Both the position numbers and the translations under genes were made by a program. From contig CAXHJY010001349.1 in NCBI GenBank assembly GCA_964016885.1, forward strand, positions 25,859 to 89,858: 64,000 nt of DNA. Direction: 5' to 3'. The notes below the pieces were generated by a model. The model saw only the letters and a program-made list of their open reading frames with translations. It was not told the DNA's origin and did no database searches. The DNA is from Eledone cirrhosa. Lineage: Eukaryota. Positions 1,897 through 39,125 of the stretch are shown here, piece by piece; position 1 is the first letter of the stretch, and each line of letters opens with the position of its first letter.

Positions 1897-2147
1897 CCAC
1901 GTGTTTTCGAACTTGTGAGTACATTTTCCTTTAACTACAAATTATTATTATATACTTTCGTCTTTTCATTAACTTAATTAATTTCAAATAACCAGAATAT
2001 ACATATATATATATATACTCATATTTATATATATACTCTTCTCACTCACACACAAGAAAAACAAAAAACAAAAATAAATCAAAAATAAATTAAAAAAAAA
2101 TATATATATATTGAAATACTTAACTAAAACACACACTCAAAACTAGA

Positions 2148-3296
2148 ATGGCTAACCAGCAAAAATCCAAACAGAACTGGTCTGATAATGAAATCGACAT
2201 TCTAATAAACACATGGCATTGCCTTACCCAAACAGTAGATATAGATGCTTCATCTCTGAACGACATTGCTAAACGTACAGTTCAATTTTTGAAAACTCGA
2301 TCTGAACAACAGATTCAAAATAAATTAAAGCAAATCGAAATTGCTTTTAAATTAATCAATAAACATTTGGATAAACTACGGTGTGTTTTTTCTTCGAATG
2401 CTGTCCAGCAGCAGCAACAACAACAACAGCAGCTACAACGGCAACAACAACAACAGCTACAACAACAACATCAACAACAGCAACAACAACAACAACAACG
2501 ACAACAACAGTGTGAACCACTCCTTGATTCATCAACAATGGCCGATCTACTAAATGAAACTATTGACCCCCCAGTAGCCTCTGTCTCACAGCATGAAACG
2601 CCACATCCTTTCTCTGGCCCAGCAGTCCAATCATCACCACTGCCAACATCTCTGCCTACTACTACTACTACAACATTTTTGTCTACTGCTATGTCAAGGA
2701 ATTTACCTTCTAATACCAGAACAAGAACTCTCCCTCCCACAGTCCACAAAGGTCGTCAAATCCTACCCAAACCATCATCTACACCTCTCACAACACACAC
2801 ACCCACATACCCACCCACTCGAAACCCCATCATTTGCCGCTACTCTCTACGCTATAGAATATGTACGGATAGTGGCTGCAAATTCACCCATTTACCTAGG
2901 ACAAAACGATCTATCCCCACAAACAGCCACCACCATAATACATACTCTAATTTAACACCAACACAACCACCAATAACTCAAACAAGGAATCCACAAATCT
3001 GCCGCTTTTCCCTGCGAGACAGATTGTGTTTAGACCGGGATTGTCCCTTTACCCATCTCCCGGGGACCCGTCGGACAAATGAAAATAAAATTAAAAATAA
3101 AAACAAAAACAAAAACCATAACCTACATAAAAATAACCACTACCACAGTCACCAACAGTCTTCTAAACAGGAAACTTCTTCCTCTTTTTTAGCCATAATG
3201 AATCTGGCAAAAGTACTGGAAAAAAACATTCGAGCTATCACCCAGCACCACCCTCCACTATCACCCCACTGCACAAACTCCCATTGCTGCCATTAA
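2148..3296 (+). CDS. LINE ORF1: N-terminal Myb/SANT-like domain, polyQ, two C-x8-C-x4-C-x3-H zinc fingers
   Basis: 382-aa ORF; NWSDNEIDILINTW...RSEQQIQNKLKQI resembles the Myb/SANT-like (trihelix/MADF) consensus; CRYSLRYRICTDSGCKFTH and CRFSLRDRLCLDRDCPFTH. Confidence 0.8.
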   Translation: MANQQKSKQNWSDNEIDILINTWHCLTQTVDIDASSLNDIAKRTVQFLKTRSEQQIQNKLKQIEIAFKLINKHLDKLRCVFSSNAVQQQQQQQQQLQRQQQQQLQQQHQQQQQQQQQRQQQCEPLLDSSTMADLLNETIDPPVASVSQHETPHPFSGPAVQSSPLPTSLPTTTTTTFLSTAMSRNLPSNTRTRTLPPTVHKGRQILPKPSSTPLTTHTPTYPPTRNPIICRYSLRYRICTDSGCKFTHLPRTKRSIPTNSHHHNTYSNLTPTQPPITQTRNPQICRFSLRDRLCLDRDCPFTHLPGTRRTNENKIKNKNKNKNHNLHKNNHYHSHQQSSKQETSSSFLAIMNLAKVLEKNIRAITQHHPPLSPHCTNSHCCH

Positions 3297-6200
3297 CAAA
3301 CAAACAAATTAACAACACACCAAAACAATTAAAACCATCCACTCTCGCCTCTACATTTTTGCTTAACGCCCAAGGCATCAGCCCTTCCACCAATACTCAA
3401 AAATGGAAGATCAAATTCCTGGAGGACTGGATTGATGTCCATCCAAACCACATGCCCTTCTTCGTCCTCACTGAAACCCATCTCAGTAACCTCCACTTGG
3501 AAGCCGAGGTGAAAGTGAAAAATTTCAAAGCCATCCGTGCTGATCGCGCTGGCAGAAGAAAGGGCGGAACTGCTATTTATGTCCATAATTCTTTCTCAAC
3601 AGAGGCTATGAACATATTCACTAATGGATACTGTGAGGCAGTCACTGAATTCAGTCAAACCAACAACCTATTAGTAGTTGGGCTCTATAGGCCACCCCAA
3701 ACGCCTGTACCATGCTTCAAGGAATGCCTCAACAGCATAAAGTGTTTCATCCAAGAGTGTCACCCTGACAACATCTTAATGATGGGGGACTTCAACCTCC
3801 CCGGAGTTGACTGGTCCACAAACAGCCTGCCACCAGGTTCTTCTGCCTCAACCTCTGACAGGGAAGCTGTGGAATCGCTTCTTGACTTCATGGATGATTT
3901 CTTCCTATCCCAACTGGTGCTCGAACCAACGAGGTGCCACAAAAACGTCCTAGACTTAATTTTCAGCAATCACACTGACAATATCCACAATATTGCAGTG
4001 GAGAAAACTCTACTCTCTGATCATGACATGGTTCTCTGTGATCTGAGATTCCACCGTCCAATATACAAACCCAATGTCATCTCTCCTGTCCATCCGTTTG
4101 ACGCTATGGATTTCCATAATGCAAACTGGGAAGCGATCAGTCATGATCTTGCACATGTCGACTGGTCCTTCACGCACACTCATACACCCACTAACATCAA
4201 AAAGTCCTGGCAGACATTTGTGGACACTGTTACAAACATATGTGCTAAACACACCCCATTAAGAACTATAAACAAATCTAAGAGCAGAATCCCTAGAAAT
4301 AGAAAAACGCTCATCAGAAAAATTAAGAGAACGAACAAAAAAATCAACAAGCTGAAATACTGTCAGCAGCAACACATCAACTTAACTGCCATTTCATCAC
4401 TAGAGATTAAAAAACATAACCTCCAAAACAACATAATGTCCCTCATCAACAATCAGAGAAGAGCTGACGAGGCCTGGGCCATTGAGAAGATCAAACTCAA
4501 TCCCAAAGTGTTCTTTTCATTTGCAAAAAAACACAAAATCACTGGCTCTACTGTTGGCCCTCTAATTGATGAAAATGGCACTCTTCAAGACAATGCTAAA
4601 ACCATGGGTGAGATACTGCAGAAACAATACTGCTCTGTTTTCAGCAATCCTGATATGGCCGATCTGGACTGTATCGGCGATGTTACTCCCCATTACACCT
4701 TATCGGACATAACGTTTGGCGCCCCTGATGTCTTGGCGGCAATAAAGGAAATCAAGCATAATTCAGCAGTAGGTCCCGATAGGTTCCCTGCTTGTGTCTT
4801 GAAGGCGTGTCAACACCAACTTGCATCTCCTCTTGCCAATCTGTGGCGGAACTCACTGGATGCTGGATATGTGCCAGAAAACCTTCTATCCCAGTCTGTT
4901 GTCCCAGTTTTCAAAAAGGGAAACAAATCCCTTGCCGTGAATTACCGTCCAATCTCACTCACCTCTCATATCATTAAGGTATTTGAGAGAGTGGTGAGAT
5001 CGCGAATGACCTACTTCCTTGAGAGTAACAATATGCTGAAATCCAACCAGCATGGATTCCGTAATGGAAGGGATTGCCTGACGCAGCTAGTGCATCACTT
5101 TGATGACATTTTGAGAGCCTTGGGAGAGGGTTCCAACACTGATGTTATCTACCTTGATTTCAGCAAGGCCTTTGACAGGGTTGATCATAACATTCTACTG
5201 AGAAAGCTGTCCAATATTGGTGTCACTGGAAAGCTGCTGCAGTGGATCAAGAGCTTCCTGTCAAACAGAACCCAACATGTTGTAGTTGAGGGAGTCAAAT
5301 CCAGCCCAGCCAAAGTCAGTAGTGGGGTCCCACAAGGCACTGTGTTGGGCCCACTTCTCTTCATCATCTATATTAATGACATCACTGACATCATCAAACA
5401 CAGCAACATTAAAATTTTCGCTGATGATTCCAAGCTCCAAAAGGTCATCAATGGCGTGGATGACCGGATAAGCCTTCAGTCAGACCTACTGGCTGTTACC
5501 CAATGGGCGGAAAAGAACAACATGTTACTGAACGAAGACAAATTCGAACTGATCCACTTTGGAAAAGAGGATGCTCTGAAACTCCCGTACTCCCTTCCCT
5601 CCGGGGAAACTCTCGTGGCATCTAACAACATCAGAGACTTGGGAGTAACCGTGGACAGCAACATAAGCTGGACCACGCATATAAGCAGCAAAGTTGACAT
5701 GGCCCGCAGAATGTGTTCCTGGATCCTCAGAACCTTCCAGTCGAGAGATTCCCGCACCATTATCCTTCTCTTCTCTACTTTTGCCCGACCACACCTTGAA
5801 TACTGTTGTCCACTGTGGTCTCCCCACACGAAACAAAGTATCATGAAACTTGAAGCTCCTCAAAGGGCAATCACGAAAAAGATAGATGGCATGTCAGACC
5901 TTGACTACTGGGGTCGATTAGAAAACCTGAAACTTTACTCACTCCAACGTCGCCGTGAGCGTTATATTATCTGCATGATGTGGAAAATGTTCCATCATCA
6001 CTGCCCAAATGATGTTGGCATCGCCTTCAAGATACACCCAAGGCTTGGGCCCCGTGCTATCCGTCCCATTCAAAAATCTAAATCGCAACTCATAACAACA
6101 ATACGGCACAATTATTTCACCTCAATCGGCCCTGCTCTCTTCAACATCACACCAGGTCACGTCAAAACAGAAACTGACCACACAAAATTCAAGAAGTCTT

Positions 6201-6304
6201 TGGACAAATTCCTCCAAGTAATCCCGGACAAACCACCCACACCCGGATATGTCTCCGCAAACAGTAATTCTCTTCTCGAATGGGCCATGGTGCCCAAATC
6301 CTGA
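3284..6304 (+). CDS. LINE ORF2: apurinic-like endonuclease plus reverse transcriptase (start uncertain, frame open from 3167)
   Basis: APE motifs LLNAQG, LTETH, GLYRPP, MGDFNLP, LDLIF, SDHD; RT motifs NYRPISLTS, QHGFR, YLDFSKAFD, GVPQGTVLGP, FADD; no stops over 1006 aa. Confidence 0.95.
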   Translation: MLPLTNKQINNTPKQLKPSTLASTFLLNAQGISPSTNTQKWKIKFLEDWIDVHPNHMPFFVLTETHLSNLHLEAEVKVKNFKAIRADRAGRRKGGTAIYVHNSFSTEAMNIFTNGYCEAVTEFSQTNNLLVVGLYRPPQTPVPCFKECLNSIKCFIQECHPDNILMMGDFNLPGVDWSTNSLPPGSSASTSDREAVESLLDFMDDFFLSQLVLEPTRCHKNVLDLIFSNHTDNIHNIAVEKTLLSDHDMVLCDLRFHRPIYKPNVISPVHPFDAMDFHNANWEAISHDLAHVDWSFTHTHTPTNIKKSWQTFVDTVTNICAKHTPLRTINKSKSRIPRNRKTLIRKIKRTNKKINKLKYCQQQHINLTAISSLEIKKHNLQNNIMSLINNQRRADEAWAIEKIKLNPKVFFSFAKKHKITGSTVGPLIDENGTLQDNAKTMGEILQKQYCSVFSNPDMADLDCIGDVTPHYTLSDITFGAPDVLAAIKEIKHNSAVGPDRFPACVLKACQHQLASPLANLWRNSLDAGYVPENLLSQSVVPVFKKGNKSLAVNYRPISLTSHIIKVFERVVRSRMTYFLESNNMLKSNQHGFRNGRDCLTQLVHHFDDILRALGEGSNTDVIYLDFSKAFDRVDHNILLRKLSNIGVTGKLLQWIKSFLSNRTQHVVVEGVKSSPAKVSSGVPQGTVLGPLLFIIYINDITDIIKHSNIKIFADDSKLQKVINGVDDRISLQSDLLAVTQWAEKNNMLLNEDKFELIHFGKEDALKLPYSLPSGETLVASNNIRDLGVTVDSNISWTTHISSKVDMARRMCSWILRTFQSRDSRTIILLFSTFARPHLEYCCPLWSPHTKQSIMKLEAPQRAITKKIDGMSDLDYWGRLENLKLYSLQRRRERYIICMMWKMFHHHCPNDVGIAFKIHPRLGPRAIRPIQKSKSQLITTIRHNYFTSIGPALFNITPGHVKTETDHTKFKKSLDKFLQVIPDKPPTPGYVSANSNSLLEWAMVPKS

Positions 6305-6449: not shown

Positions 6450-6797
6450 ATACGTATTTAAGAAAGCCACAACAATGCAAAGGGAAATCTCGAGGTAGGA
6501 AGTGAAATATAGATAGGAAAAACAGGTGAAAGTGAAAATTGAGAGAGACAAAGATGAAAACAAAACAAAGGTAGAAGGGTTACCGTAGTAGAGATTTAAT
6601 CCCAATATTTCGGACTCACGCCCATCAACGGGGGAAAAGTTCCAAAAGGGGGGAAACAGGCCAAGCGGAGAAAGTTGTGATGTCGTTAAGCCAGGAATGC
6701 TCTCTCAATTTTCGCTTTCACCTGTTTTTCCTATCTATATTTCACTTCCTACCTCGAGATTTCCCTTTGCATTGTTGTGGCTTTCTTAAATACGTAT
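6450..6797. repeat. Inverted repeat, 98-bp arms (6450-6547 / 6700-6797), probable Penelope pLTR remnant
   Basis: atacgtatttaagaaagcc...aattgagagag vs ctctctcaatt...ggctttcttaaatacgtat; right arm ends in a TA tract; pLTR origin is inference. Confidence 0.8.
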
Positions 6798-6800
6798 ATA

Positions 6801-6860
<60 letters not shown>

Positions 6861-6867
6861 TATATAC

Positions 6868-6899
<32 letters not shown>

Positions 6900-6900
6900 G

Positions 6901-6948
<48 letters not shown>

Positions 6949-6949
6949 C

Positions 6950-6994
<45 letters not shown>

Positions 6995-7041
6995 TACATA
7001 TATATATATATACATATATATATACATATATATATATATAC

Positions 7042-7088
<47 letters not shown>

Positions 7089-7158
7089 CATATATATATA
7101 CATATATATATACATATATATATATATACATATATATACATATATATATATACAGATA

Positions 7159-7241
<83 letters not shown>

Positions 7242-7311
7242 ATATACATATAAATATATATATATATATAAGTATATATATATATAAATATATATATATA
7301 TACATATAAAT

Positions 7312-7342
<31 letters not shown>

Positions 7343-7423
7343 CATATATATACATTTATATATATAAATATATATATATATAAATATATATATATATACA
7401 TATATATACATATATATATATAA

Positions 7424-7454
<31 letters not shown>

Positions 7455-7482
7455 AATATATATATAAATATATATATATATA
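6798..7482. repeat. (TA)n-type microsatellite
   Basis: Direct reading. Confidence 0.98.
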
Positions 7483-7539
7483 TACAATATTAAATAACAA
7501 TATTAAATAAATGGAAAACTATATTTATAAAACCATATT

Positions 7540-7605
7540 TATTTCATTATATATATTTCGGGGATATCATATTAACAATATGCTATGCCTTCATCAGACA
7601 AAATA
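7540..7605 (-). ncRNA. Type I hammerhead ribozyme (weak stem I, A-C at the base of stem II)
   Basis: Minus strand: UAUUUUGU CUGAUGA AGGCAUAGCAUAUU guu AAUAUGAUAUCCCC GAAA UAUAUA UA AUGAAAUA. Confidence 0.6.
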
Positions 7606-7968
7606 CAATATAAACAGTTTTATAGATAAATATATTCGACATACCGTAATAAACATCAACTTCATTTGAAGAGGTTTAGTCTAGCAGTGAAAATACAGAG
7701 AGAAAGAAAGAGAGAAAGAAAAGAGGGAAAAAACGAAAGAAAGAAAGACAAAACGAAGAAAAGGAAGAAAAAGAAGAAAAAGAAAAAGAAGAAATGCATG
7801 GAACAAAATAGAGAGATGGAAAAATAGATAAAGTGAAGAGCTTCATGTAAAGAGACAGAAAGATATATATATATATAGAGAGAGAGGAAATAGAGATAGA
7901 TACATATATATATATATAGAAAATTAGGTAGTGGGAGGTCATTTTGAGTAAGTGTATCAATGATACAT

Positions 7969-8003
<35 letters not shown>

Positions 8004-8827
8004 GCTCAAGTATTAATGTAAGGGAGATATATAGAGAGATATAGAGAGATATAGAGAGAGAAAAAAATTTAAAAATATCCAGACATATTCGAGGCGTAGA
8101 AAACCCTATGTTTTAATGTATTAGTATTTATAAAACTTACACTACACTGTAAATATCAGTATTCCTGAATGAAACAAGTATTCACAATGTGTGAAAATTG
8201 ATTATCTTATGTTTAGTTTTAAAAATTCATATGTCTATGTGACAGCTACAAATCTCAATGTGAATCCAACTGATTCACTCCGCAAACTCTAAGTTATCGG
8301 AAAACATTCTCAATGTGGTATAAAAATTTGAGCGTATTATTATTCTTGCGATTACTCTACAAGATTATCTATCAAGCAGAAATAGAGAGCAGATTTCAAT
8401 ATACTAATCGAAAATATATATTATATTATAAACATAATAATAAGTAAAAATATAGAATAGAAAACTAAAAAAATATTACGAAAGAATATTACATAATAAA
8501 AATATTGCATATTAAAAATACTACGTATTAAAAAATATTACGTATTAAAGATTTACATATAAAAATTTACATATAAAAATATACATATAAAAATTTACAT
8601 ATAAAAATTTACATATAAAAATATATAAAAATATTAAAAAAAAAAAAAATAAATAAATAAAATAAAAATAAAAATATTATAGAATACTACAATACTAAAA
8701 GAGTAAAAGTAAAAATAAAAATAAAAATAAAAATAAAAATAAAAATAAAAATAAAAATAAAAATAAAAATAAAAATGAAAATAAAAATAAACCACAAAAA
8801 AAAAAAAAATTTTTATTTTTATTTTTA

Positions 8828-8858
<31 letters not shown>

Positions 8859-9560
8859 TTTACTTTTATTCTTTTAGTATTGTAGTATTCTATAATATTT
8901 TTATTTTTATTTTATTTATTTTTTTTTAAATATTTTTATATATTTTTATATGTAAATTTTTATATGTAAATTTTTATATGTATATTTTTATATGTAAATT
9001 TTTATATGTAAATCTTTAATACGTAATATTTTTTAATACGTAGTATTTTTAATATGCAATATTTTTATTATGTAATATTCTTTCGTAATATTTTTTTAGT
9101 TTTCTATTCTATATTTTTACTTATTATTATGTTTATAATATAATATATATTTTCGATTAGTATATTGAAATCTGCTCTCTATTTCTGCTTGATAGATAAT
9201 CTTGTAGAGTAATCGCAATAATAATAATACGCTCAAATTTTTATACCACATTGAGAATGTTTTCCGATAACTTAGAGTTTGCGGAGTGAATCAGTTGGAT
9301 TCACATTGAGATTTGTAGCTGTCACATAGACATATGAATTTTAAAAACTAAACATAAGATAATCAATTTTCACACATTGTGAATACTTGTTTCATTCAGG
9401 AATACTGATATTTACAGTGTAGTGTAAGTTTTATAAATACTAATACATTAAAACATAGGGTTTTCTACGCCTCGAATATGTCTGGATATTTTTAAATTTT
9501 TTTCTCTCTCTATATCTCTCTATATCTTTCTATATATCTCCCTTACATTAATACTTGAGC

Positions 9561-9595
<35 letters not shown>

Positions 9596-9966
9596 ATGTA
9601 TCATTGATACACTTACTCAAAATGACCTCCCACTACCTAATTTTCTATATATATATATATGTATCTATCTCTATTTCCTCTCTCTCTCTATATATATATA
9701 TATATCTTTCTGTCTCTTTACATGAAGCTCTTCACTTTATCTATTTTTCCATCTCTCTATTTTGTTCCATGCATTTCTTCTTTTTCTTTTTCTTCTTTTT
9801 CTTCCTTTTCTTCGTTTTGTCTTTCTTTCTTTCTTTCGTTTTTTCCCTCTTTTCTTTCTCTCTTTCTTTCTCTCTGTATTTTCACTGCTAGACTAAACCT
9901 CTTCAAATGAAGTTGATGTTTATTACGGTATGTCGAATATATTTATCTATAAAACTGTTTATATTG

Positions 9967-10032
9967 TATTTTGTCTGATGAAGGCATAGCATATTGTTAA
10001 TATGATATCACCGAAATATATATAATGAAATA
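9967..10032 (+). ncRNA. Type I hammerhead ribozyme, mirror copy
   Basis: CUGAUGA at 9975-9981, GAAA at 10013-10016, palindromic stem III AUAUAUAU, stem I tattttgt/atgaaata. Confidence 0.6.
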
Positions 10033-10170
10033 AATAGGTTTTATAAATATAGTTTTCCATTTATTTAATATTATTTAATATTGTAAATATACTCCAAATA
10101 TTTGTCGAGTGCTTTTATATCAGTTATAAATATTTACTAGTTGTAACCCAACAATTTTAAATATAACTTT

Positions 10171-11808
<1,638 letters not shown>

Positions 11809-12684: not shown

Positions 12685-13150
12685 CATATATATACATATA
12701 TATATACATATATATATACATATATATATACATATATATATACATATATATATACATATATACATACGTGGGAAAGTGAAAATTCGGAGAATAGACCGTT
12801 AAAACATGTTTATTTAAAATAACACCTACGTACGTTTCGCCCAGTTGGGCTTCTCAACTGGGCGAAACGTACGTAGGTGATATTTTAAATAAACATGTTT
12901 TAACGGTCTATTATCCGGTTTTTCACTTTCCCACGTGCTTACGCTCTGCTAACTCTCTAGCCCACTAAATATTAACACTTCGAATATTTAATACTGCCGG
13001 CACTAGTATCGAGCAGCTTTGGCATACGCTACTTGGCAAATAACTATATGTATCACCTATCCCTCCTTTTTCTCTCTTTCTCGATACGTAAATACTATAT
13101 ATATACATATATATATATATACATATATATATACATATATATATATATAC

Positions 13151-14474: not shown

Positions 14475-14557
14475 CATATATATATACATATATATATATA
14501 TACATATATATATATACATATATATATATACATATATATATATACATATATATATAT
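12121..14557. repeat. TA-type microsatellites (12121-12765, 13097-14557) with short embedded inserts
   Basis: Direct reading. Confidence 0.95.
12766..12936. repeat. Fold-back inverted repeat (12766-12847 / 12855-12936) with an HHR remnant at the apex
   Basis: Minus strand across the apex: UUGAGAA GCCC aacu GGGC GAAA CGUACG UA GGUGU. Confidence 0.85.
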
Positions 14558-15566
14558 CATAAAATGTCTATAGAATCACAAGATAAAATATAAACTATTT
14601 CCTCTTCCAATTAGCACAATTAACTATATAAGGAATCGAATAGACCAGGCTATACGAATGAGGCTTCTATGAAGGAATCTCCGACAAATAACCGAAAGTA
14701 GCGCTTCGCGCCGGCCGTAGCGGAATATTTATCGAATATTTCGACAGCGTAATCGCCTAGATATAGTCAACTAAACAGAATTAGGTTTAAAATACACTTG
14801 GAGAAAAGAGAATACATGTAAATACCTCTACCATGGTTTCGTCCGTGTTTTGAGTTTTCCAATAATTATGTAATAATTATATAAACTCGAGCGCCGGATT
14901 CTTCAGGAAGCTCGCTCACATCTAGACATTAAATTTTCCAGAACGATTGCGCCAAGAATTCATTTCAAAATGGCTAAAAATCGTGACGCAGTCGCGGTAA
15001 AGTTGGAAGGGGTGTGGTAGTTGCTTACGACTGGTGGCATTTTTGCGAGAAAGCACAGCACAATACAGCCAAATTTGTATCTCAACCTAGTGGGAGATTA
15101 TTACATATAAAAGTTTACATATATATATACATACAGATACATATACGTGTTTTGCAACTGGTCACTTTGTGGCACAATGAAAAATTAATAAATTAAACAA
15201 TCAGAGCTATATATCATAAAACATGTCTATAGAATCACAAGATAAAATATAAACTATTTCCTCTCCGAATTAGCATAATTAACTATATAAGAAATCGAAT
15301 AGACCATGCTATACGAATGAGGCTTCTATGAAGGAATCTCCGACAAATAACCGAAAGGAGCGCTTCGCGTCGGCCGTAGCCGAATATTTATCGAATATTT
15401 CGACAGCGTAATCGCCTAGATATAGTCAACTAAACAGAATTAGGTTTAAAATAAAGTAGGAGAAAATAGAATACATTTAAAAACCTCTACCATGGTTTCG
15501 TCCGTGTTTTGAGTTTTCCAATAATTATGTAATAATTATATAAACTCGAGCGCCGGATTCTTCAGG
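14558..15566 (-). mobile_element. Tandem repeat, ~659-bp unit x1.5, HHR-bearing (retrozyme or PLE pLTR)
   Basis: tagaatcaca at 14571 and 15230; HHR core in both copies. Confidence 0.75.
14824..14911 (-). ncRNA. Type I hammerhead ribozyme with long stem II
   Basis: GCUUC CUGAAGA AUCCG...CGGAC GAAA CCAUGG UA GAGGU; second copy 15483-15566 lacks the 5' strand of stem I. Confidence 0.7.
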
Positions 15567-15632
15567 TATATATATACATATATATATATATACATATATA
15601 TAAAATATATATATATATATACATATATATAC

Positions 15633-15681
<49 letters not shown>

Positions 15682-15721
15682 CATACACATATATATATAT
15701 AAATACATATATATATACATA

Positions 15722-15759
<38 letters not shown>

Positions 15760-15812
15760 CATATATATACATACATATATATACAAACATATATATACAT
15801 ACATATATATAC

Positions 15813-15849
<37 letters not shown>

Positions 15850-16560
15850 CATATATATATACATATATATACATATATATACATATATATACATATATAT
15901 ACATATATATACATATATATACATACATATATATATACATATATATACATATATATACATACATATATATATATATACATATATATACATATATATACAT
16001 ATACATACATATATATACATATACATACATATACATATACATACATATATATACAGACATACATACATATACATGACATACATATCTATACATACATATC
16101 TATACATACATATCTATACATACATATCTATACATACATATCTATACATACATATCTATACATACATATATATACATACATATCTATACATACATATACA
16201 TACATATCTATACATACATATATATACATATATATATACATACATATATATATAAATACATATATATATATACACACATATATATATATACATACATATA
16301 TATCCATACATATATATACATACATATATATCCATACATATATATACATACAAATATATATATATACATATATATATATATACACATATATATATATACA
16401 TACATATATATATACATACATATATATATATACATATATATATATACATATACATATATATACATATACATATATATACATATACATATATATATATATA
16501 CATATACATATATATACATATAGATATATATATACATATATATATATATACATATACATA
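15567..16560. repeat. TA/TACA microsatellite
   Basis: Direct reading. Confidence 0.97.
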
Positions 16561-18314
16561 TCCATTAATATCCTCGTGATATTTAATGTTTTTCACCGTG
16601 AAACTGTACAGTTAGGGCCATTTGAATAGGTAAATATTTATATTATATTTTTTAATTTTGATTAATTTTAATTGTATATTAATTTTGATTTATTTTGAAA
16701 AATTGGTTGAATTTTACTTGTTCTGCTTATCGATATTAAGTTCTGGTATATCAAATTATTACCATAGAACCACCTTAAATCATAGACACACTATATATTT
16801 CCGGGGGTACATTGTACCCTCAGATATATATTAACCTTATTCAATAATCTCCAGTATGTAGAGATACAAATTTGTCGTTCTATTTAGTTACTAAAAATCT
16901 TTTTTTTTAGTGGCGATTATAGACGGCGAGTCTACGATTTCCCCCCTTCACTATACACCAATGTATTTACGGGTCACTTTCACGACCTTTTAGACCTGTA
17001 TTAGTTGGTGTGAGGTCATATATTTTGTCGTTTCTGGGGTTTTTAACCCTAGGACAGGAAAATGCTTCTCTGATGATCGTTGCTTTTCCATTAATATCCT
17101 CGTGATATTTAATGTTTTGCACCGTGAAACTGTACAGTTAGGGCCATTTGAATAGGTAAATATTTATATTATATTTTTTAATTTTGATTAATTTTAATTG
17201 TATATTAATTTTGATTTATTTTGAAAAATTGGTTGAATTTTACTTGTTCTGCTTATCTCGAAATTAAGTTCTGGTATATCAAATTATTACCATAGAACCA
17301 CCTTAAATCATAGACACACTATATATTTCCGGGGGTACATTGTACCCTCAGATATATATTAACCTTATTCAATAATCTCCAGTATGTAGAGATACAAATT
17401 TGTCGTTCTATTTAGTTACTAAAAATCTTTTTTTTTAGTGGCGATTATAGACGGCGAGTCTACGATTTCCCCCCTTCACTATACACCAATGTATTTACGG
17501 GTCACTTTCACGACCTTTTAGACCTGTATTAGTTGGTGTGAGGTCATATATTTTGTCGTTTCTGGGGTTTTTAACCCTAGGACAGGAAAATGCTTCTCTG
17601 ATGATCGTTGCTTTTCCATTAATATCCTCGTGATATTTAATGTTTTGCACCGTGAAACTGTACAGTTAGGGCCATTTGAATAGGTAAATATTTATATTAT
17701 ATTTTTTAATTTTGATTAATTTTAATTGTATATTAATTTTGATTTATTTTGAAAAATTGGTTGAATTTTACTTGTTCTGCTTATCTCGAAATTAAGTTCT
17801 GGTATATCAAATTATTACCATAGAACCACCTTAAATCATAGACACACTATATATTTCCGGGGGTACATTGTACCCTCAGATATATATTAACCTTATTCAA
17901 TAATCTCCAGTATGTAGAGATACAAATTTGTCGTTCTATTTAGTTACTAAAAATCTTTTTTTTTAGTGGCGATTATAGACGGCGAGTCTACGATTTCCCC
18001 CCTTCACTATACACCAATGTATTTACGGGTCACTTTCACGACCTTTTAGACCTGTATTAGTTGGAGTGAGGTCATATATTTTGTCGTTCCTGGGGTTTTT
18101 AACCCTAGGACAGGAAAATGCTTCTCTGATGATCGTTGCTTTTCCATTAATATCCTCGTGATATTTAATGTTTTGCACCGTGAAACTGTACAGTTAGGGC
18201 CATTTGAATAGGTAAATATTTATATTATATTTTTTAAATTTGATTAATTTTAATTGTATATTAATTTTGATTTATTTTGAAAAATTGGTTGAATTTTACT
18301 TGTTCTGCTTATCT

Positions 18315-18316
<2 letters not shown>
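16561..18316 (+). mobile_element. Tandem array, 528-bp unit x3.3, one HHR per unit (retrozyme-like)
   Basis: ctgatga at 17070, 17598 and 18126; near-identical non-coding units; TA tracts on both sides. Confidence 0.85.
17060..17149 (+). ncRNA. Type I hammerhead ribozyme (copies also at 17588-17677 and 18116-18205)
   Basis: AAAUGCUUCU CUGAUGA UCGUUGC...GCACCGU GAAA CUGUACAG UU AGGGCCAUUU; palindromic stem III, GUU triplet. Confidence 0.75.
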
Positions 18317-18999
<683 letters not shown>

Positions 19000-19000
<1 letters not shown>

Positions 19001-19146
19001 TGTTATATTTGGGGAGGGTCATATTTGCGTAATATTGCCAGAATTAATAACAGAACACACTCACTGTTTGGTTGGTTTTCGCTTCTCGCTGTCTTTTATA
19101 TATATATATCTGCGATCTAACTTACTCGGTCCTCAATGTTGCCATT
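19000..19146. repeat. Dispersed ~140-bp repeat (also 24597-24735; related end inverted at ~45370-45400)
   Basis: ttgttatatttggggagggtcatatttgcg...ctcaatgttgccatt repeated. Confidence 0.85.
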
Positions 19147-19220
19147 GACTGACCGGCGGTCAAAAATAATACAGATACAATATAGACAAACACATATATA
19201 TATAGTTTACATAATTTACA

Positions 19221-19260
19221 TAAATCTTTCGTTGCACATCTGCAACATCGTCAGTGGTGT
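19221..19260 (-). ncRNA. Partial hammerhead in the PLE 3' region
   Basis: ACACCA CUGACGA U GUUGCA gaug UGCAAC GAAA GAUUUA; stem I 3' strand largely missing. Confidence 0.5.
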
Positions 19261-19528
19261 TATATTCATTGTTCCTCCTGTTGTGTTGTATGTCTACGCC
19301 ATTTTTTTTTTGTTCAGTCTGTCTATATATTTATTTATTTATTTGCTTGTTTGTTTATCTTATTTTATTTTGTCTTCTTTGCGCATGCGTTTGCGTGTGT
19401 GTATAGTGTTATGTGTGATGTGTGACTAGTGTGTATAGTGTTGTGTCTGCTGGGTGACTAGTGTGTGTTTATGTGCTTGTGTATGTATTTATTTATCTTA
19501 TTTAATTTAATTTAATTTACTTATTTAT

Positions 19529-20608
19529 TTATACTTCTCTTAGGTCAGTGTTGTTTGTTTGGGTGTTGTTGTTGTTCCACTCATTCTTTCTGTTTAGCTT
19601 TGGTCTTCTAATTTCTATTTCACTGGCCTCTCTGATTTGCCTATCTGCTGGGTCATTCCTATGTTTAGATATTATTCTAATTTCTATGTTGTCTATGTTA
19701 CCGTCATGTTGTTGTCTAGCATGTTCGTATAGTACTGACCCGTTTTTTCGTCCTTTTAGTTCCCCCCAGTGTTGGTCTATCCTTTCACCTATGCTACGAG
19801 CTGTCTCACCTATGTATGTTTTTGTCGTGTTTCTGCAAGTACCCTCTGTACATCTTATGCTATAGACTACGTTTCTAGTTTTACAGTTTATCCGGGGGTT
19901 CACCTTACATATGATACATTTCCTATTGGTACAGTGGGTTTTCTTAAAAGGGTAGGTTTTGCTGATCAGGGATTTTATGGTGGTTCCTGGCTTTTCTACC
20001 ACATTTATTTTTAAGTGGGTCTTTCTCAGGGCCTTTCTACACTGGTTAGCTAATTTCCCTCCAGGGGTGGCGTCCACAAACATGACACTCTGATATCTCT
20101 GGTTGTCGTACCATGATGTGGCCTTCCCTATCTTATGTCTAGCCCTATCTAAGCTATTCCATGATTTGCTCCTGTATAGTGGGCAAATTCCTTTCATGTC
20201 CAGTTCTATGAGGGTCTTATACTTTTCCATGGCTCCTTCGTATACTCTGACTCTGTCTCTTTGGTTGTAGCCAGAGAACTGCATGCGGTTGATGAAGTGT
20301 TGGATGTGTCCTTCCATTTCTGTTGGGTCGCACATGCTGGACACATTCTTCATCACTCGTACCAAATCTGCGATCAGAATATTAAACTTAGCACTACTGG
20401 ACATTGCTGAGTTTTTTAGTATCAGGTATTTGGAGGCCATGGGTTTAGCATAGTGTGAGTGGAGAATTTGGGCTCTCTCGTCTATAGTGTTAATCCAGAA
20501 TTCTGTGTCTAATACAGGTAGTCTATTGTTAGGGTGTTTGGAAGGGAAGTCTATAGTTACAGTTATACTCTGGTGTATGGAATTAGCTATCTGCTGGATG
20601 CTTTCCAT
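19529..20608 (-). pseudogene. PLE ORF 3' part: RT thumb, linker and GIY-YIG endonuclease
   Basis: 359-aa ORF with VVY...YIGET.R motif; upstream RT part lies in other frames. Confidence 0.85.
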
Positions 20609-21080
20609 CGTGCTACGTTATAAATCAAACTTGTTAGTGCTCCCTAGTGGGGGTGTTCTTATAGCTATATTGATATCGTCTACATAACGAGAGTACATGA
20701 TGAGGTCTATGGAGCTTTCATTAAGGAGATCTTTAAGTCTCCTTTCCCATGAAAAGGTTGGCAACATCACCAGCTATGCTGACGCCGATGGCTGCTCCCT
20801 CATTTTGGGTGTAGATTTTCTCATTGAACTTAAATATGTGGCCCTTTAGGGTAGTTTTGATACTAGCCCCTATTGCATGTGCGACCATTTTTCTTACCTG
20901 ATCAGTGTTTTGGGGGGTCCGTATAGCTTTGGTCCACCCAATCCACCTTCCTATGGGAGTCTTTTTAGCCATTGAGGTTATGGTGGGGGGTCTACCTCTT
21001 ATAGGTCTACTAGGGCAGAAACGTCTAAGGTCATGGCTGTCTAGGTAGTCAGTGTCGTAGGTAAGTCTAAGTAGGAGGCC

Positions 21081-24010
<2,930 letters not shown>

Positions 24011-24060
24011 CAATTAAGATAAAACGAAACGAAATTTAATTTCGTTTCGTTATTTGTTTT

Positions 24061-24387: not shown

Positions 24388-25600
<1,213 letters not shown>

Positions 25601-34945: not shown

Positions 34946-34999
34946 ATTTTTATGTATGTATGTATGTCAGTATGTATGTATGTCAGTATGTATGTATGT

Positions 35000-35616
35000 C
35001 AGGTCACCACTTGGTGCTACTGGTAACATGTATTCCAGTACAACCTGTCCCATGGTCGGGTCGTTGGCGACTAAACTGGCAACCCCACTAAGGTTTCTTG
35101 GTGAGGAGGGTGACTTTGGACATCCTGCAGGACTAAAAACAAAACCTGTCAAAGGGCAAAGGAGCTCTTAAGAGTCAATGGCCATCCAAAATCACCGGGA
35201 GAGATGACCCCTTAGCCTTTGTCAAGGCAGAATTCTAGGAGAAGGAAAACTCTGATATAACACCTGCAACTCTGATGGTATCCAATAATGTTGACTTGTT
35301 CTTCTTTTTGGTAAATATCATCTTGGTTAAGTGAGTGGGACTGGCTTTGTGCAGTGCCTTTGATCACTATAAAAGCTTCACAGCACAGGCATTGCTTTAT
35401 ATCTGGAGATCTCCCTGCACTTGTCGTCATATGATACCATGGGCCCAGCACTATGTGTCGATAATTGTCACAAGTGTAGTGTTTGTACCAGAGTTTTCAA
35501 GTCGCTGGCTGGACTAAAAAGTCACACTCGTTCAGCGCATAGGTAGGGGTTCTCCTACATGGATATAAAGTAGTGGCCGTACTCGAAAACGAGTTGGCAG
35601 CCACCATATATGTATG

Positions 35617-35701
<85 letters not shown>

Positions 35702-35984
35702 ATGTATATATGTATATATATATGTATGTATATATATATATATATATGTATGTATATATATGTATATATGTATGTATATATATGTATGTATGTATCTGTA
35801 TGTATATATATGTATGTATATATATATATGTATGTATATATATATATATGTATGTATATATATATGTATATGTATATATGTATGTATATATATATATATG
35901 TATGTATATATATATATGTATATATATATGTATGTATATATGTATGTATATGTATGTATGTATGTATGTATATATGTATGTATG

Positions 35985-36035
<51 letters not shown>

Positions 36036-38434
36036 ATGTATGTGTGTATGTGTGTATGTATGTATGTATGTATGTATGTATGTATGTATGTATGTATGTA
36101 TGTCAGGTCACCAGTTGGTGCTACTGGTAACATGTATCCCAGTACAACCTGTCTCATGGTCGGGTCGTTGGCGACTAAACTTGCAACCCCACCAAGGTTT
36201 CTTGGTGAGGAGGGTGACTTTGGACATCCTGAAGGACTAAAAACAAAACCTCTCAAATCGCAAAGGAGATCTTAAGAGTCAATGGTCATCCAAAATCACT
36301 GGGAGAGATAACCCCTTAGCCTTTGTCAAGGCAGAATTCTAGGAGAAGGAACACTCTGATATAACACCTGCAACCCTGATGGTATCCAATGATGTTGACT
36401 TGTTCTTCTTTTTGGTAAATATCATATTGGTTAAGTGAGTGGGACTGGCATTGTGCAGTGCCTTTGCTCACTATAAAAGCTTCACGGCACAGGCATTGCT
36501 TTATATCTGGAGATCTCTCTGCACTTGTCGTCACATGGTACCATGGTCCTAGCACTATGTATCAATAATTGTCACAGGTGTAGTGTTTGTACCAGAGTTT
36601 TCAAGACGCTGGCTGGACTAAAGTTACATTCGTTCAGCGCATCAGTAGGAGTTCTCCTACATGGATATAAAGTAGTGGCCGGACTCGAAAACGAGTGGGC
36701 AGCCACCATGTATGTATGTATGTATGTATGTATGTATGTATGTATGTATGTATGTATGTATGTATGTATGTATGTATGTATGTATGTCATCTCTCCCGGT
36801 GATTTTGAATAGCCATTGACTCTTAAGAGCTCCTTTGCCCTTTGACAGGTTTTGTTTTTAGTCCTGCAGGATGTCCAAAGTCACCCTCCTCACCAAGAAA
36901 CCTTGGTGGGGTTGCCAGTTTAGTTGCCAACGACCCGACCATGAGACAGGTTGTACTGGGATACATGTTACCAGTAGCACTAACTGGTGGCCTTTGTCAA
37001 GGCAGAATTCTAGCAGAAGGAAAACTCTGATATAACACCTGCAACCCTGATGGTATCCAATGATGTTGACTTGTTCTTCTTTTTGGTAAATACCATCTTG
37101 GTTAAGAGAGTGGGACTGGCTTTGTGCAGTGCCTTTGCTCACTATAAAAGCTTCACCGCACAGGTATTGCTTTATATCTGGAGATCTCTCTGCACTTGTC
37201 GTCACATGGTACCATGAGCCCAGCACTATGTGTCAATAATTGTCACAAGTGTAGTGTTTGTACCAGAGTTTTCAAGTCGCTGGCTGGATTAAAAAGTCAC
37301 ACTCGTTCAGCGCATTGGTAGGGGTTCTCCTACACGGATATAAAGTAGTGGCCGTACTCGAAAACGAGTTGGCAGCCACCATGTATGTATGTATGTATGT
37401 ATGTATGTATGTATGTATGTATGTATGTATGTATGTATGTATGTATGTATGTATGTCAGGTCACCAGTTGGTGCTACTGGTAACATGTATCCCAGTACAA
37501 CCTGTCTTTTGGTCGGGTCGTTGGCGACTAAACTGGCAACCCCACCAAGGTTTCTGGGTGAGGAGGGTGACTTTGGACAGCCTGCAGGACTAAAAACAAA
37601 ACCTGTCAAAGGGCAAAGGAGCTCGTAAGTGTCAATGGCCATCCAAAATCACCGGGAGAGATGACCTCTTAGCCTTTGTCAAGGCAGAATTCTAGGAGAA
37701 GGAAAACTCTGATATAACACCTGCAACCCTGATGGTATCCAATGATGTTGACTTGTTCTTCTTTTTGGTAAATATCATCTTGGTTAAGAGAGTGGGACTG
37801 GCTTTGTGCAGTGACTTTGCTCACTATAAAAGCTTCACGGCACAGGCATTGCTTTATATCTGGAGATCTCTCTGCTTTTGTCATCACATGGTACCATGGG
37901 CCCAGTACTATGTGTCAATAATTGTCAGAAGTGTAGTGTTTGTACCAGAGTTTTCAAGTCGCTGGCTGGACTAAAGTCACATTCGTTCAGCGCATCGGTA
38001 GGGGTTCTCCTACATGGATATAAAGTAGTGGCCGTACTCGAAAACGAGTTGGCAGCCACCATGTATGTATGTATGTATGTATGTATGTATGTATGTATGT
38101 ATGTATGTATGTATCCAATGATGTTGACTTGTTCTTCTTTTTGGTAAATATCATCTTGGTTAAGAGAGTGGGACTGGCTTTGTGCAGTGCCTTTGCTCAC
38201 TATAAAAGCTTCACGGCACAGGCATTGCTTTATATCTGGAGATCTCTCTGCACTTGTCGTCACATGGTACCAAAGGCAAAGCACTATGTGTCAAAAAAAC
38301 AAGTGTAGTGTTTGTACCAGAGTTTTCAAGTCGCTGGCTGGACTAAAAAGTCACACTCGTTCAGCGCATCGGTAGGGGTTCTCCTACATGGATATAAAGT
38401 AGTGGCCGTACTCGAAAACGAGTTGGCAGCCACC
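35000..38434 (+). mobile_element. Five head-to-tail ~605-bp non-autonomous RTE-derived elements separated by (ATGT)n: 35000-35605, 36104-36707, 36788-37380, 37457-38060, 38111-38434
   Basis: Near-identical units; 3' part encodes a C2H2 finger [23 protein letters not shown] as at RTE C-termini; end ...gagttggcagccacc(atgt)n. Confidence 0.75.
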
Positions 38435-39125
38435 ATGTATGTATGTATGTATGTATGTATATTATTATCTCTTTCTCTTAATTTCGAGTATATTTTTGAC
38501 CGGCCACCCTCCTGGTGGCAAGGTTGTTAAAGAAAAGAAATTGTCATCCCTTGAATCGCAAGAATGTTTTTCAAATTTTGAAGGTGCCAGCTATCGAAGC
38601 GATTTGTATACTATGAATTAGGGAGCTGCCCTCTTTGTCCGCAAATACAAGTTCAGTTATACATTGTATGTATGTATGTATGTAAGATATATGTGTATGT
38701 GGGCATGTAGGAATGGGATTGCATGTACCAATCAATATGTTTTGATATAAGTATATGTGCATATACATAATTCTGTTTTGTGTGTGTACATATACATATA
38801 TTTGTCTGCACGTATTATAATGTGGACATCTGTAATATTTAGTGTACTTATGTTCACAATTCCAACAACAGCTTGTAATTTTGATATTTTAATTAAACAA
38901 GTATTGAATGATTGTATGGAGCACAACCTTCTAAGATAAGTTCTGAGTTAGTTAGAGGAACAACCAACTTTCCTAATAATTATAAGCATAAATCTAAAAT
39001 TATATATCGTGCATAGTATCTGAAGAGTTCTTATTTCGGCAAAGTTGTTTTCGTTTTCTCTTTATGTTTAATAATATATTATTGTCTGCTGGACAACTGG
39101 TTTGTACTACTGTGTGCAGTTCCAT

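Follow-up and report, generated by a model that had tools for sequence, protein, structure and literature searches.

The locus raises the question of what produced a short tandem array of non-coding units with hammerhead ribozyme motifs inside a long TA microsatellite: a retrozyme, the 3' ends of a coding PLE or an ordinary satellite. The 64-kb window (the whole stretch of DNA that was analysed) is A/T-rich, animal-like and dense with TA microsatellites and retroelement debris. The features identified are listed in Table 1.

Table 1. Positions of the features discussed, numbered from the first base of the window
Feature	Position	Strand	Remarks
Whole array	16561..18316	+	3.33 units of 528 nt; from self-comparison and sequence
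Unit 1	16562..17087	+	526 nt; 5' end truncated inside hammerhead stem II
Unit 2	17088..17615	+	528 nt
Unit 3	17616..18143	+	528 nt
Partial unit 4	18144..18316	+	ends 121-125 nt past the last predicted cleavage site
Left (TA)n/(TACA)n microsatellite	15567..16561		TRF and sequence; putative insertion target
Right (TA)n microsatellite	18317..19000		TRF
5'-truncated hammerhead	16562..16623	+	distal stem II, GAAA, palindrome, GUU 16611-16613 and stem I 3' strand; lacks CUGAUGA
Hammerhead 1	17060..17149	+	own descriptor; predicted cut after U17139
Hammerhead 2	17588..17677	+	own descriptor; predicted cut after 17667
Hammerhead 3	18116..18205	+	own descriptor; predicted cut after 18195
Predicted monomer RNA	17140..17667	+	528 nt between two cleavage sites; 31% GC; strongly structured
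Long A/U-rich hairpin	18206..18305	+	between cleavage site and 3' end; in every unit; z -3.80, 0/200 shuffles
Block shared with 657-nt array	17352..17402	+	also 16824-16874 and 17880-17930; same sense as 15126-15070 (-) in the 657-nt array
657-nt unit	14551-15566	-	1.55 units, 95.5% identical; hammerhead at 14906 with 59-nt stem II and palindromic stem III
310-nt unit	59651-60607	+	3.1 units, >99% identical; 14-nt stem II
316-nt unit	63299-63948 (family to 64000)	-	hammerhead with U3-A8 core variant, HH9 match below gathering score; inverted 5' segment
Inverted pair	7597 (-) / 9975 (+)	both	hammerheads with 31-nt stem II
Hydra-type PLE fragment	53905-55100	-	CxCX5C linker, CxxC and CxH motifs

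Organisation of the array

When comparing the array with itself, 528 nt was the sole period from 500 to 559 with more than 50% self-match. The limits given in the first-pass annotation, as well as its count of about 3.3 near-identical units between TA tracts (1756/528 = 3.33), were reproduced exactly. The 3' limit holds because nothing after G18316, the last base incompatible with the TA target, is distinguishable from that target, and microhomology with the TA tract leaves the end uncertain up to position 18320. A target-site duplication is unreadable, the insertion lying inside a microsatellite, and as a TA-like 12-mer follows ~21% of the positions in the window a single (TA)n flank is weak evidence of targeting.

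The units are 98.9-99.6% identical to unit 2, which carries the majority base at every variable site but one, an ambiguous site at the position of the 3' terminus. Among units 1-3 six single-base differences were found, three of which, all in unit 1, are located at the position corresponding to the array end, and precisely at this terminus position unit 1 has lost 2 nt and carries a substitution. The changes are suggestive of a junction left by a template jump, but could be the result of slippage or sequencing error. At position 175 units 2 and 3 have an A while unit 1 and the 3' junction have a T; the remaining variants are each private to one unit with no nested sharing, and unit 2 differs from unit 3 by two changes and from unit 1 by two to three events. 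Differences private to single units fit one copying event, and since the units carry private substitutions they are not a collapsed read copy.

The unit has a GC content of 0.31 and the description of it as non-coding holds: when a doubled 528-nt unit was translated in six frames the longest stop-free stretch was 60 aa and the longest ATG ORF 33 aa. Self-blastn revealed no further copy of the unit in the 64-kb window, and when prokaryotic genomes were scanned for an exact pattern there were 0 matches, a result that is uninformative for an animal repeat.

Hammerhead motifs in the units

Each motif part previously listed (CUGAUGA, a stem II of ~49 nt, GAAA, the palindrome and the GUU at 17137-17139) was found, and the proposed 10-bp stem I with one mismatch corresponds to nine pairs out of ten, two of them G.U, and one C.C mismatch. 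The array contains three complete type I hammerheads and four stem III/GUU sites, only three motifs being complete because unit 1 begins inside stem II and lacks the CUGAUGA core. The sequence CTGATGA is located at 17070, 17598 and 18126, in each case followed by 49 nt and GAAA, and the 12-nt palindrome at 16602, 17128, 17656 and 18184. Hammerhead 1 consists of stem I (17060-17069/17140-17149), core (17070-17076), stem II (17077-17125, 49 nt), GAAA (17126-17129) and the palindromic stem III (17129-17138), the latter being self-complementary over 10 nt, or 12 nt when A14 and U17 are counted. The conserved core positions C3-A9, G12-A14, A15.1-U16.1 and H17 are all present, position 10.1:11.1 is U.U and not G-C, and the proximal part of stem II is imperfect. 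The first internal loop of stem II could supply a loop 1-loop 2 contact, and the 5'-truncated hammerhead could be cleaved by the core of the next unit in a double hammerhead.

The motif was searched for with a descriptor requiring the core, GAAA within 2-80 nt, a perfect palindromic stem III and four stem I pairs. In dinucleotide shuffles of the unit it was found in 0 of 5000, or 5 of 5000 when the palindrome rule was dropped. The real window gave 12 hits, compared with one hit in 200 shuffles of the TA-masked window, and 14 hits without the palindrome rule, compared with a mean of 0.13 in shuffled windows; these counts are flattered since the descriptor was devised after the motif had been seen, and unrelated families were recovered too. 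A search with Rfam gave no hammerhead match for the array at gathering score or at E 10, only low-complexity miRNA-type noise, and the long stem II is the likely reason for this. Short-stem siblings at 59911-60596 and 63448-63830 gave matches to Rfam Hammerhead_HH9 below the gathering score (E 0.0065-0.043). The array and its hammerhead motif are confirmed as real and beyond chance.

Predicted folding and activity

Folding of the monomer gave a z of -5.97 for the hammerhead strand (0/100 shuffles) and -2.00 for the opposite strand (3/100), with 23 and 12 G.U pairs, respectively, in the circular MFE structures. The middle 331 nt of the monomer alone gave z -5.71. This strand-specific structure points to selection on the RNA of the hammerhead strand and lends indirect support to its putative expression as linear and circular RNA of unit length. 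The 49-nt stem II region folds as a single interrupted hairpin (z -3.25, 1/200 shuffles). For the 657-nt sibling unit the fold was no better than in shuffles (z -1.11, 3/20), and the 310-nt unit folds at z -4.73.

When a single isolated motif was folded without constraints the MFE structure was another one than the hammerhead (z +1.66), and in constrained folds the monomer hammerhead made up ~5e-5 of the ensemble, seven other motifs in the window ranging from 2.6e-7 to 2.1e-4. In a transcript of two units one monomer hammerhead costs 16.1-17.8 kcal/mol and two cost 24.8, while the double hammerhead, a cis dimer, costs 9.5 kcal/mol in ensemble energy and 5.8 in MFE, in an energy model that ignores the tertiary energy of the core. 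The unconstrained two-unit MFE structure already contains the palindrome duplex between the units. The active fold is thereby predicted for adjacent pairs of units, as a double hammerhead, and not for single copies. Even the double hammerhead sits energetically above the free ensemble, and pairing of A14 with U17 may block the cleavage site. GUU is cleaved more slowly than GUC; the literature search found no measured rates for GUU cleavage. According to the accessible parts of PMC4209133 palindromic type I motifs work as dimers and the in vitro activity of PLE hammerheads is low, PMC6765202 agreeing, in what could be consulted of it, on palindromic stem III and dimers, and in the accessible text of bioRxiv 10.64898/2026.07.22.740005 in vitro cleavage is given for only one of nine predicted retrozyme dimers.

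An ordinary satellite or an assembly artefact in which a hammerhead-like motif had arisen by chance would account for the missing Rfam match, for an active fold that is not the MFE structure and for the low-complexity, assembly-prone surroundings. Such an origin is nevertheless highly improbable given that the motif never appeared in the 5000 shuffles, that the structure is strand-specific, that the units carry private substitutions and that the same architecture recurs in unrelated families of the window, the short-stem ones among them being those with Hammerhead_HH9 matches below the gathering score.

Comparison with retrozymes and known hammerheads

The array resembles metazoan non-LTR retrozymes, as these are presented in the accessible text of Cervera and de la Pena 2020 (PMC7229834) and Li, Clavereau and Pollet 2026 (bioRxiv 10.64898/2026.07.22.740005), in its short, non-coding head-to-tail units, structured monomer, one type I hammerhead per unit, GC content below 45% (31% in the array) and few units per locus (up to seven in 75% of the families). 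A complete type I motif in at least two consecutive units, used as a retrozyme criterion, was found in the array (three units, according to our own descriptor and not confirmed by Rfam). The likeness is drawn from sequence and predicted folding, cleavage and circles being properties of the published retrozymes. The array differs from them in its 49-nt stem II region, where theirs is a 4-bp stem, in the U.U at 10.1:11.1 and in the GUU site, and in the parts of the same two papers that were available insertion of retrozymes into (TA)n is not discussed, the word microsatellite being absent from those of PMC7229834 and used once, with another meaning, in those of the bioRxiv text. The suggestion that the unit is larger than usual stands when compared with the ~300-nt monomers in PMC7229834 but not with the range of 51-972 bp for retrozyme consensus sequences in the bioRxiv text, each as far as accessible.

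When compared with the PLE min-HHR and double hammerhead (Cervera and de la Pena 2014, PMC4209133, in its accessible part) the motif is similar in being of type I with a palindromic 15.2-16.2 region, in a helix II above canonical size and in predicted dimers of low activity. It differs in that the G10.1-C11.1 pair, there called highly conserved, is missing, in a helix II region far beyond the 6-8 bp of PLE min-HHR and in a longer stem I (nine of ten pairs). The canonical type I hammerhead (Rfam clan CL00010) likewise has G10.1-C11.1 closing stem II where the array has U.U.

A likeness was also found to the hammerheads of Hydra-clade PLEs (Craig et al. 2021, PMC8557442), of which 25 families were counted by hand in File S2, the part available to us; one is listed twice and several are closely related, so that the families are not independent. 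A U is present on both sides of the stem II base in 14/25 and U17 in 10/25, and the 528-nt hammerhead shares the combination of U.U at 10.1:11.1 and U17 with the 8/25 that have both. As in the Hydra-clade hammerheads, stem III opens with A-C, closes with G-U and is near-palindromic, and the orientation is sense. Section 11 of the same paper describes insertion of Hydra elements into (TA)n, and the array has (TA)n on both flanks. Consensus 3' ends of Hydra PLEs, computed by hand for eight families from the available Files S1 and S2, are located 36-123 nt past the cut, and the 3' end of the array at 121-125 nt is like these termini. The array differs from Hydra-clade PLEs in lacking an RT/EN ORF and in its tandem units of fixed length, and the single ORF with RT, C-terminal GIY-YIG and CxCX5C linker that defines an autonomous Hydra-clade element was not found in it. 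Stem II with its loop is also longer, 49 nt compared with 12-26 nt in the 25 families. Long stem II has a precedent among PLE hammerheads since those of spike-moss PLE-X have a stem II/loop 2 of 54 and 48 nt (hand count, File S2, PMC8557442), though these elements are unlike the array in being of plant origin, coding, rDNA-targeted and of another core context according to the accessible text. The literature search, with partial coverage, gave nothing relevant on long or extended stem II hammerheads in retroelements or on retrozymes together with microsatellites. PLE hammerhead variants have reportedly been described by Lunse et al., and long-stem-II variants may already be in print.

Judged by all sequence criteria that could be tested, the array would be classified as a non-LTR retrozyme, neither an autonomous PLE nor a canonical Rfam hammerhead. 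Its unusual traits are a stem II of 49 nt combined with a Hydra-type core, and the block shared with the 657-nt family described below.

Sibling hammerhead repeats in the window

Four further hammerhead-bearing non-coding families are located in or beside TA tracts of the 64-kb window. The 528-nt array is one member of a local crowd, and a long stem II is recurrent in the window. The 3' end of the 657-nt array falls at an AT run internal to its unit. The whole 310-nt array (59508-60607, + strand) has hammerheads at 59926, 60236 and 60546, and its 5' segment is inverted; its 3' end is 31 nt beyond the cut site, with a 3' flank that is not pure TA. A further copy of the 316-nt family, dispersed and partial, is located at 50017-50302 (+) and has a different 3' end; the family shares ~90-145 nt with the 310-nt family. 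Inverted 5' segments, as in both arrays, are typical of PLE insertion. The inverted pair belongs to a 4-kb inverted repeat (6787-10799) that includes the TA flanks, with one hammerhead per arm and 3' ends differing by ~80 nt. An inverted-repeat insert between TA tracts at 12766-13087 contains a truncated short-stem hammerhead-like sequence with its palindromic stem III at the inversion junction.

To the 657-nt unit the 528-nt unit shows similarity in one block of ~45-55 nt, partly an AT run (blastn E 1.5e-5; score 51, compared with a maximum of 35 in 100 shuffles), which is a candidate cis-element. Common ancestry of the two families was considered but is not supported by global alignment, in which the whole unit did no better than shuffles (125/200); from the shared block to the core the alignment was marginal (6/200 shuffles). 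When the 528-nt unit was compared with the 310-nt unit, the 316-nt unit and the element at 9975, similarity was no better than in shuffles.

PLE fragments in the window

The ORF of the Hydra-type PLE fragment in Table 1 is located 36 kb from the array. It has eight longer homologues (E 6e-18 to 3e-10), and DKT and R.W(K/R) are present in the two full-length homologues inspected; the 3' UTR of the fragment terminates with a hammerhead whose stem II measures 36 nt, and (TA)n follows after 34-38 nt. Fragments of this type, tandem and inverted, occupy 52890-58190 and 62146-63090 (ORF pieces 53905-55100 and 56844-57264), with hammerheads of 35-36-nt stem II near their 3' ends at 52978, 55886, 58083 and 62996. 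The 3' part of a Neptune/Nematis-like PLE was identified at 19012-21080 (-), with a CX4CxxC linker and GIY-YIG, 23 homologues of at most 49% identity over nearly the full length, a frame broken near 20620-20730 and a hammerhead core, at 19254, that is degenerate. At 24609-24734 TA tracts flank a 126-nt copy of the 3' end of this PLE. No Pfam family was found for the PLE fragments, and of six homologues one had a weak match to GIY-YIG; the clade assignment therefore rests on motifs compared with those in the accessible text of PMC8557442.

The 528-nt unit showed no similarity to the Hydra-type 3' UTR, 62 of 100 shuffles equalling or beating the score, nor to that of the Neptune/Nematis-like element, where the opposite strand gave a borderline score (1/100 shuffles). 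These comparisons bear on the possibility that the unit is the 3' end (pLTR or 3' UTR) belonging to a coding PLE of Hydra type at another place in the genome, the array then consisting of 5'-truncated copies or tandem pLTRs. We regard this as unlikely. It would explain the Hydra-type core signature, the 3' end 121-125 nt past the cut (by hand calculation 123 in Penelope-2_HM and 116 in Hydra-1_Crog) and the location of three of the six single-base differences at the array-end position, as a template-jump junction might give, and retrozymes are related to, and argued to derive from, PLE pLTRs in the accessible text of bioRxiv 10.64898/2026.07.22.740005. The unit lengths are, however, all alike where independent 5' truncations would differ, the array has no ORF remnant, tblastn with the PLE proteins of the window found no match in it, and the PLE 3' UTRs of the window are without similarity to the unit. 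The tandem pLTRs of a coding PLE proposed at first thereby found no support within the window, which holds neither a second copy of the unit nor a PLE 3' UTR similar to it.

Origin of the array

The array is probably one recent insertion of a non-autonomous non-LTR retrozyme that used the RT and GIY-YIG endonuclease of a (TA)n-targeting PLE, most likely of the Hydra clade. This upholds the retrozyme or PLE-derived reading of the first-pass annotation and narrows it to a hammerhead of Hydra-clade type with (TA)n as its target; the clade of the carrier is deduced from motif style and target and not from homology, since the unit lacks similarity to the PLE 3' UTRs of the window. In the mechanism proposed, read-through transcription would give a multimeric RNA, in which neighbouring hammerheads would cut slowly at GUU and release 528-nt monomers that a host ligase may circularise. 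After nicking (TA)n, the PLE enzyme would prime 121-125 nt beyond the cut, at an A/U-rich point, and would copy over three unit lengths until it stopped inside stem II.

The 5' end of the array is located 52 nt upstream of a cleavage site, at the base of the distal hairpin of stem II. As neither array end is a cleavage site, the array was not made by copying a cleaved linear multimer from one end to the other. Rolling copying of a circle has been proposed in PMC4209133 and in the discussion of PMC7229834, and a non-integer number of units was originally taken to fit rolling reverse transcription of a circle. It does fit, but it does not discriminate: the array 3' end matches published positions of Hydra-PLE 3' termini, so that the fraction is no proof of a circular template, and an identical fraction would result from template jumping on linear RNA or from a 1.33-unit insert that later underwent unequal crossing-over. 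Rolling round a circle and jumping repeatedly on a linear RNA whose 3' end is fixed are about equally probable.

The third route would be a PLE-type insert of ~1.33 units that later grew to 3.33 by unequal crossing-over or slippage, a satellite birth with the hammerheads as passengers; the array would then say nothing in favour of rolling reverse transcription. Unequal exchange between the 177-nt terminal repeats would preserve the fraction, the A at position 175 is common to units 2 and 3 with T in unit 1 and the 3' junction, and such a route is proposed in the discussion of bioRxiv 10.64898/2026.07.22.740005, in its accessible part. Against this, the other variants are private without nesting, unit 2 is equally distant from units 3 and 1, and three other hammerhead families of the window are partial tandems (1.55, 2.1 and 3.1 units), suggesting that tandems form at insertion. 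Growth after insertion is for these reasons quite improbable compared with insertion of the retrozyme as a tandem.

If the retrozyme insertion is the true origin the array would in part be one more, ordinary, retrozyme family. Its core signature and its (TA)n target would also tie a retrozyme to a specific carrier clade, the Hydra PLEs. Several families of a single animal genome would be shown to have hammerheads with a long stem II that Rfam misses, and the array, young and near-homogeneous with a defined 3' end, would be suited to testing circle against template jump. A joint reading of all families, which we put forward tentatively and hold to be doubtful, is that the genome harbours a radiation of (TA)n-targeted retrozymes mobilised by Hydra PLEs, with a stem II of 31-59 nt, missed by Rfam and short-stem descriptors and undercounted in animals, that the ~45-nt block shared by the 528- and 657-nt families acts as a genuine cis-signal, for RT recognition or as an internal promoter, and that the arrays arose not from circles but from template jumps that recurred at a fixed 3' end. 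The circular intermediate that has been assumed would in that case be directly testable.

Other features of the window

By eye, a splice-donor-like site was noted at 17156 (+), 16 nt past the cut, followed ~280 nt further on by an acceptor-like site with branch point, polypyrimidine tract and AG (~17438). PLE terminal repeats can hold introns; the splice-like signals in the 528-nt unit were set aside, as they are common in A/T-rich DNA and may be due to chance. Copies of a ~700-nt repeat, tandem and inverted and 92-96% identical, are located at 34951-38460 with (ATGT)n tracts between them, and no hammerhead core was found in this repeat. An apparently intact two-ORF LINE is located at 2124-6304 (+), with a 390-aa frame (weakly Myb/SANT-like) and a 1045-aa frame containing endonuclease and RT domains, and a broken relative was identified at 22390-24013 (-).
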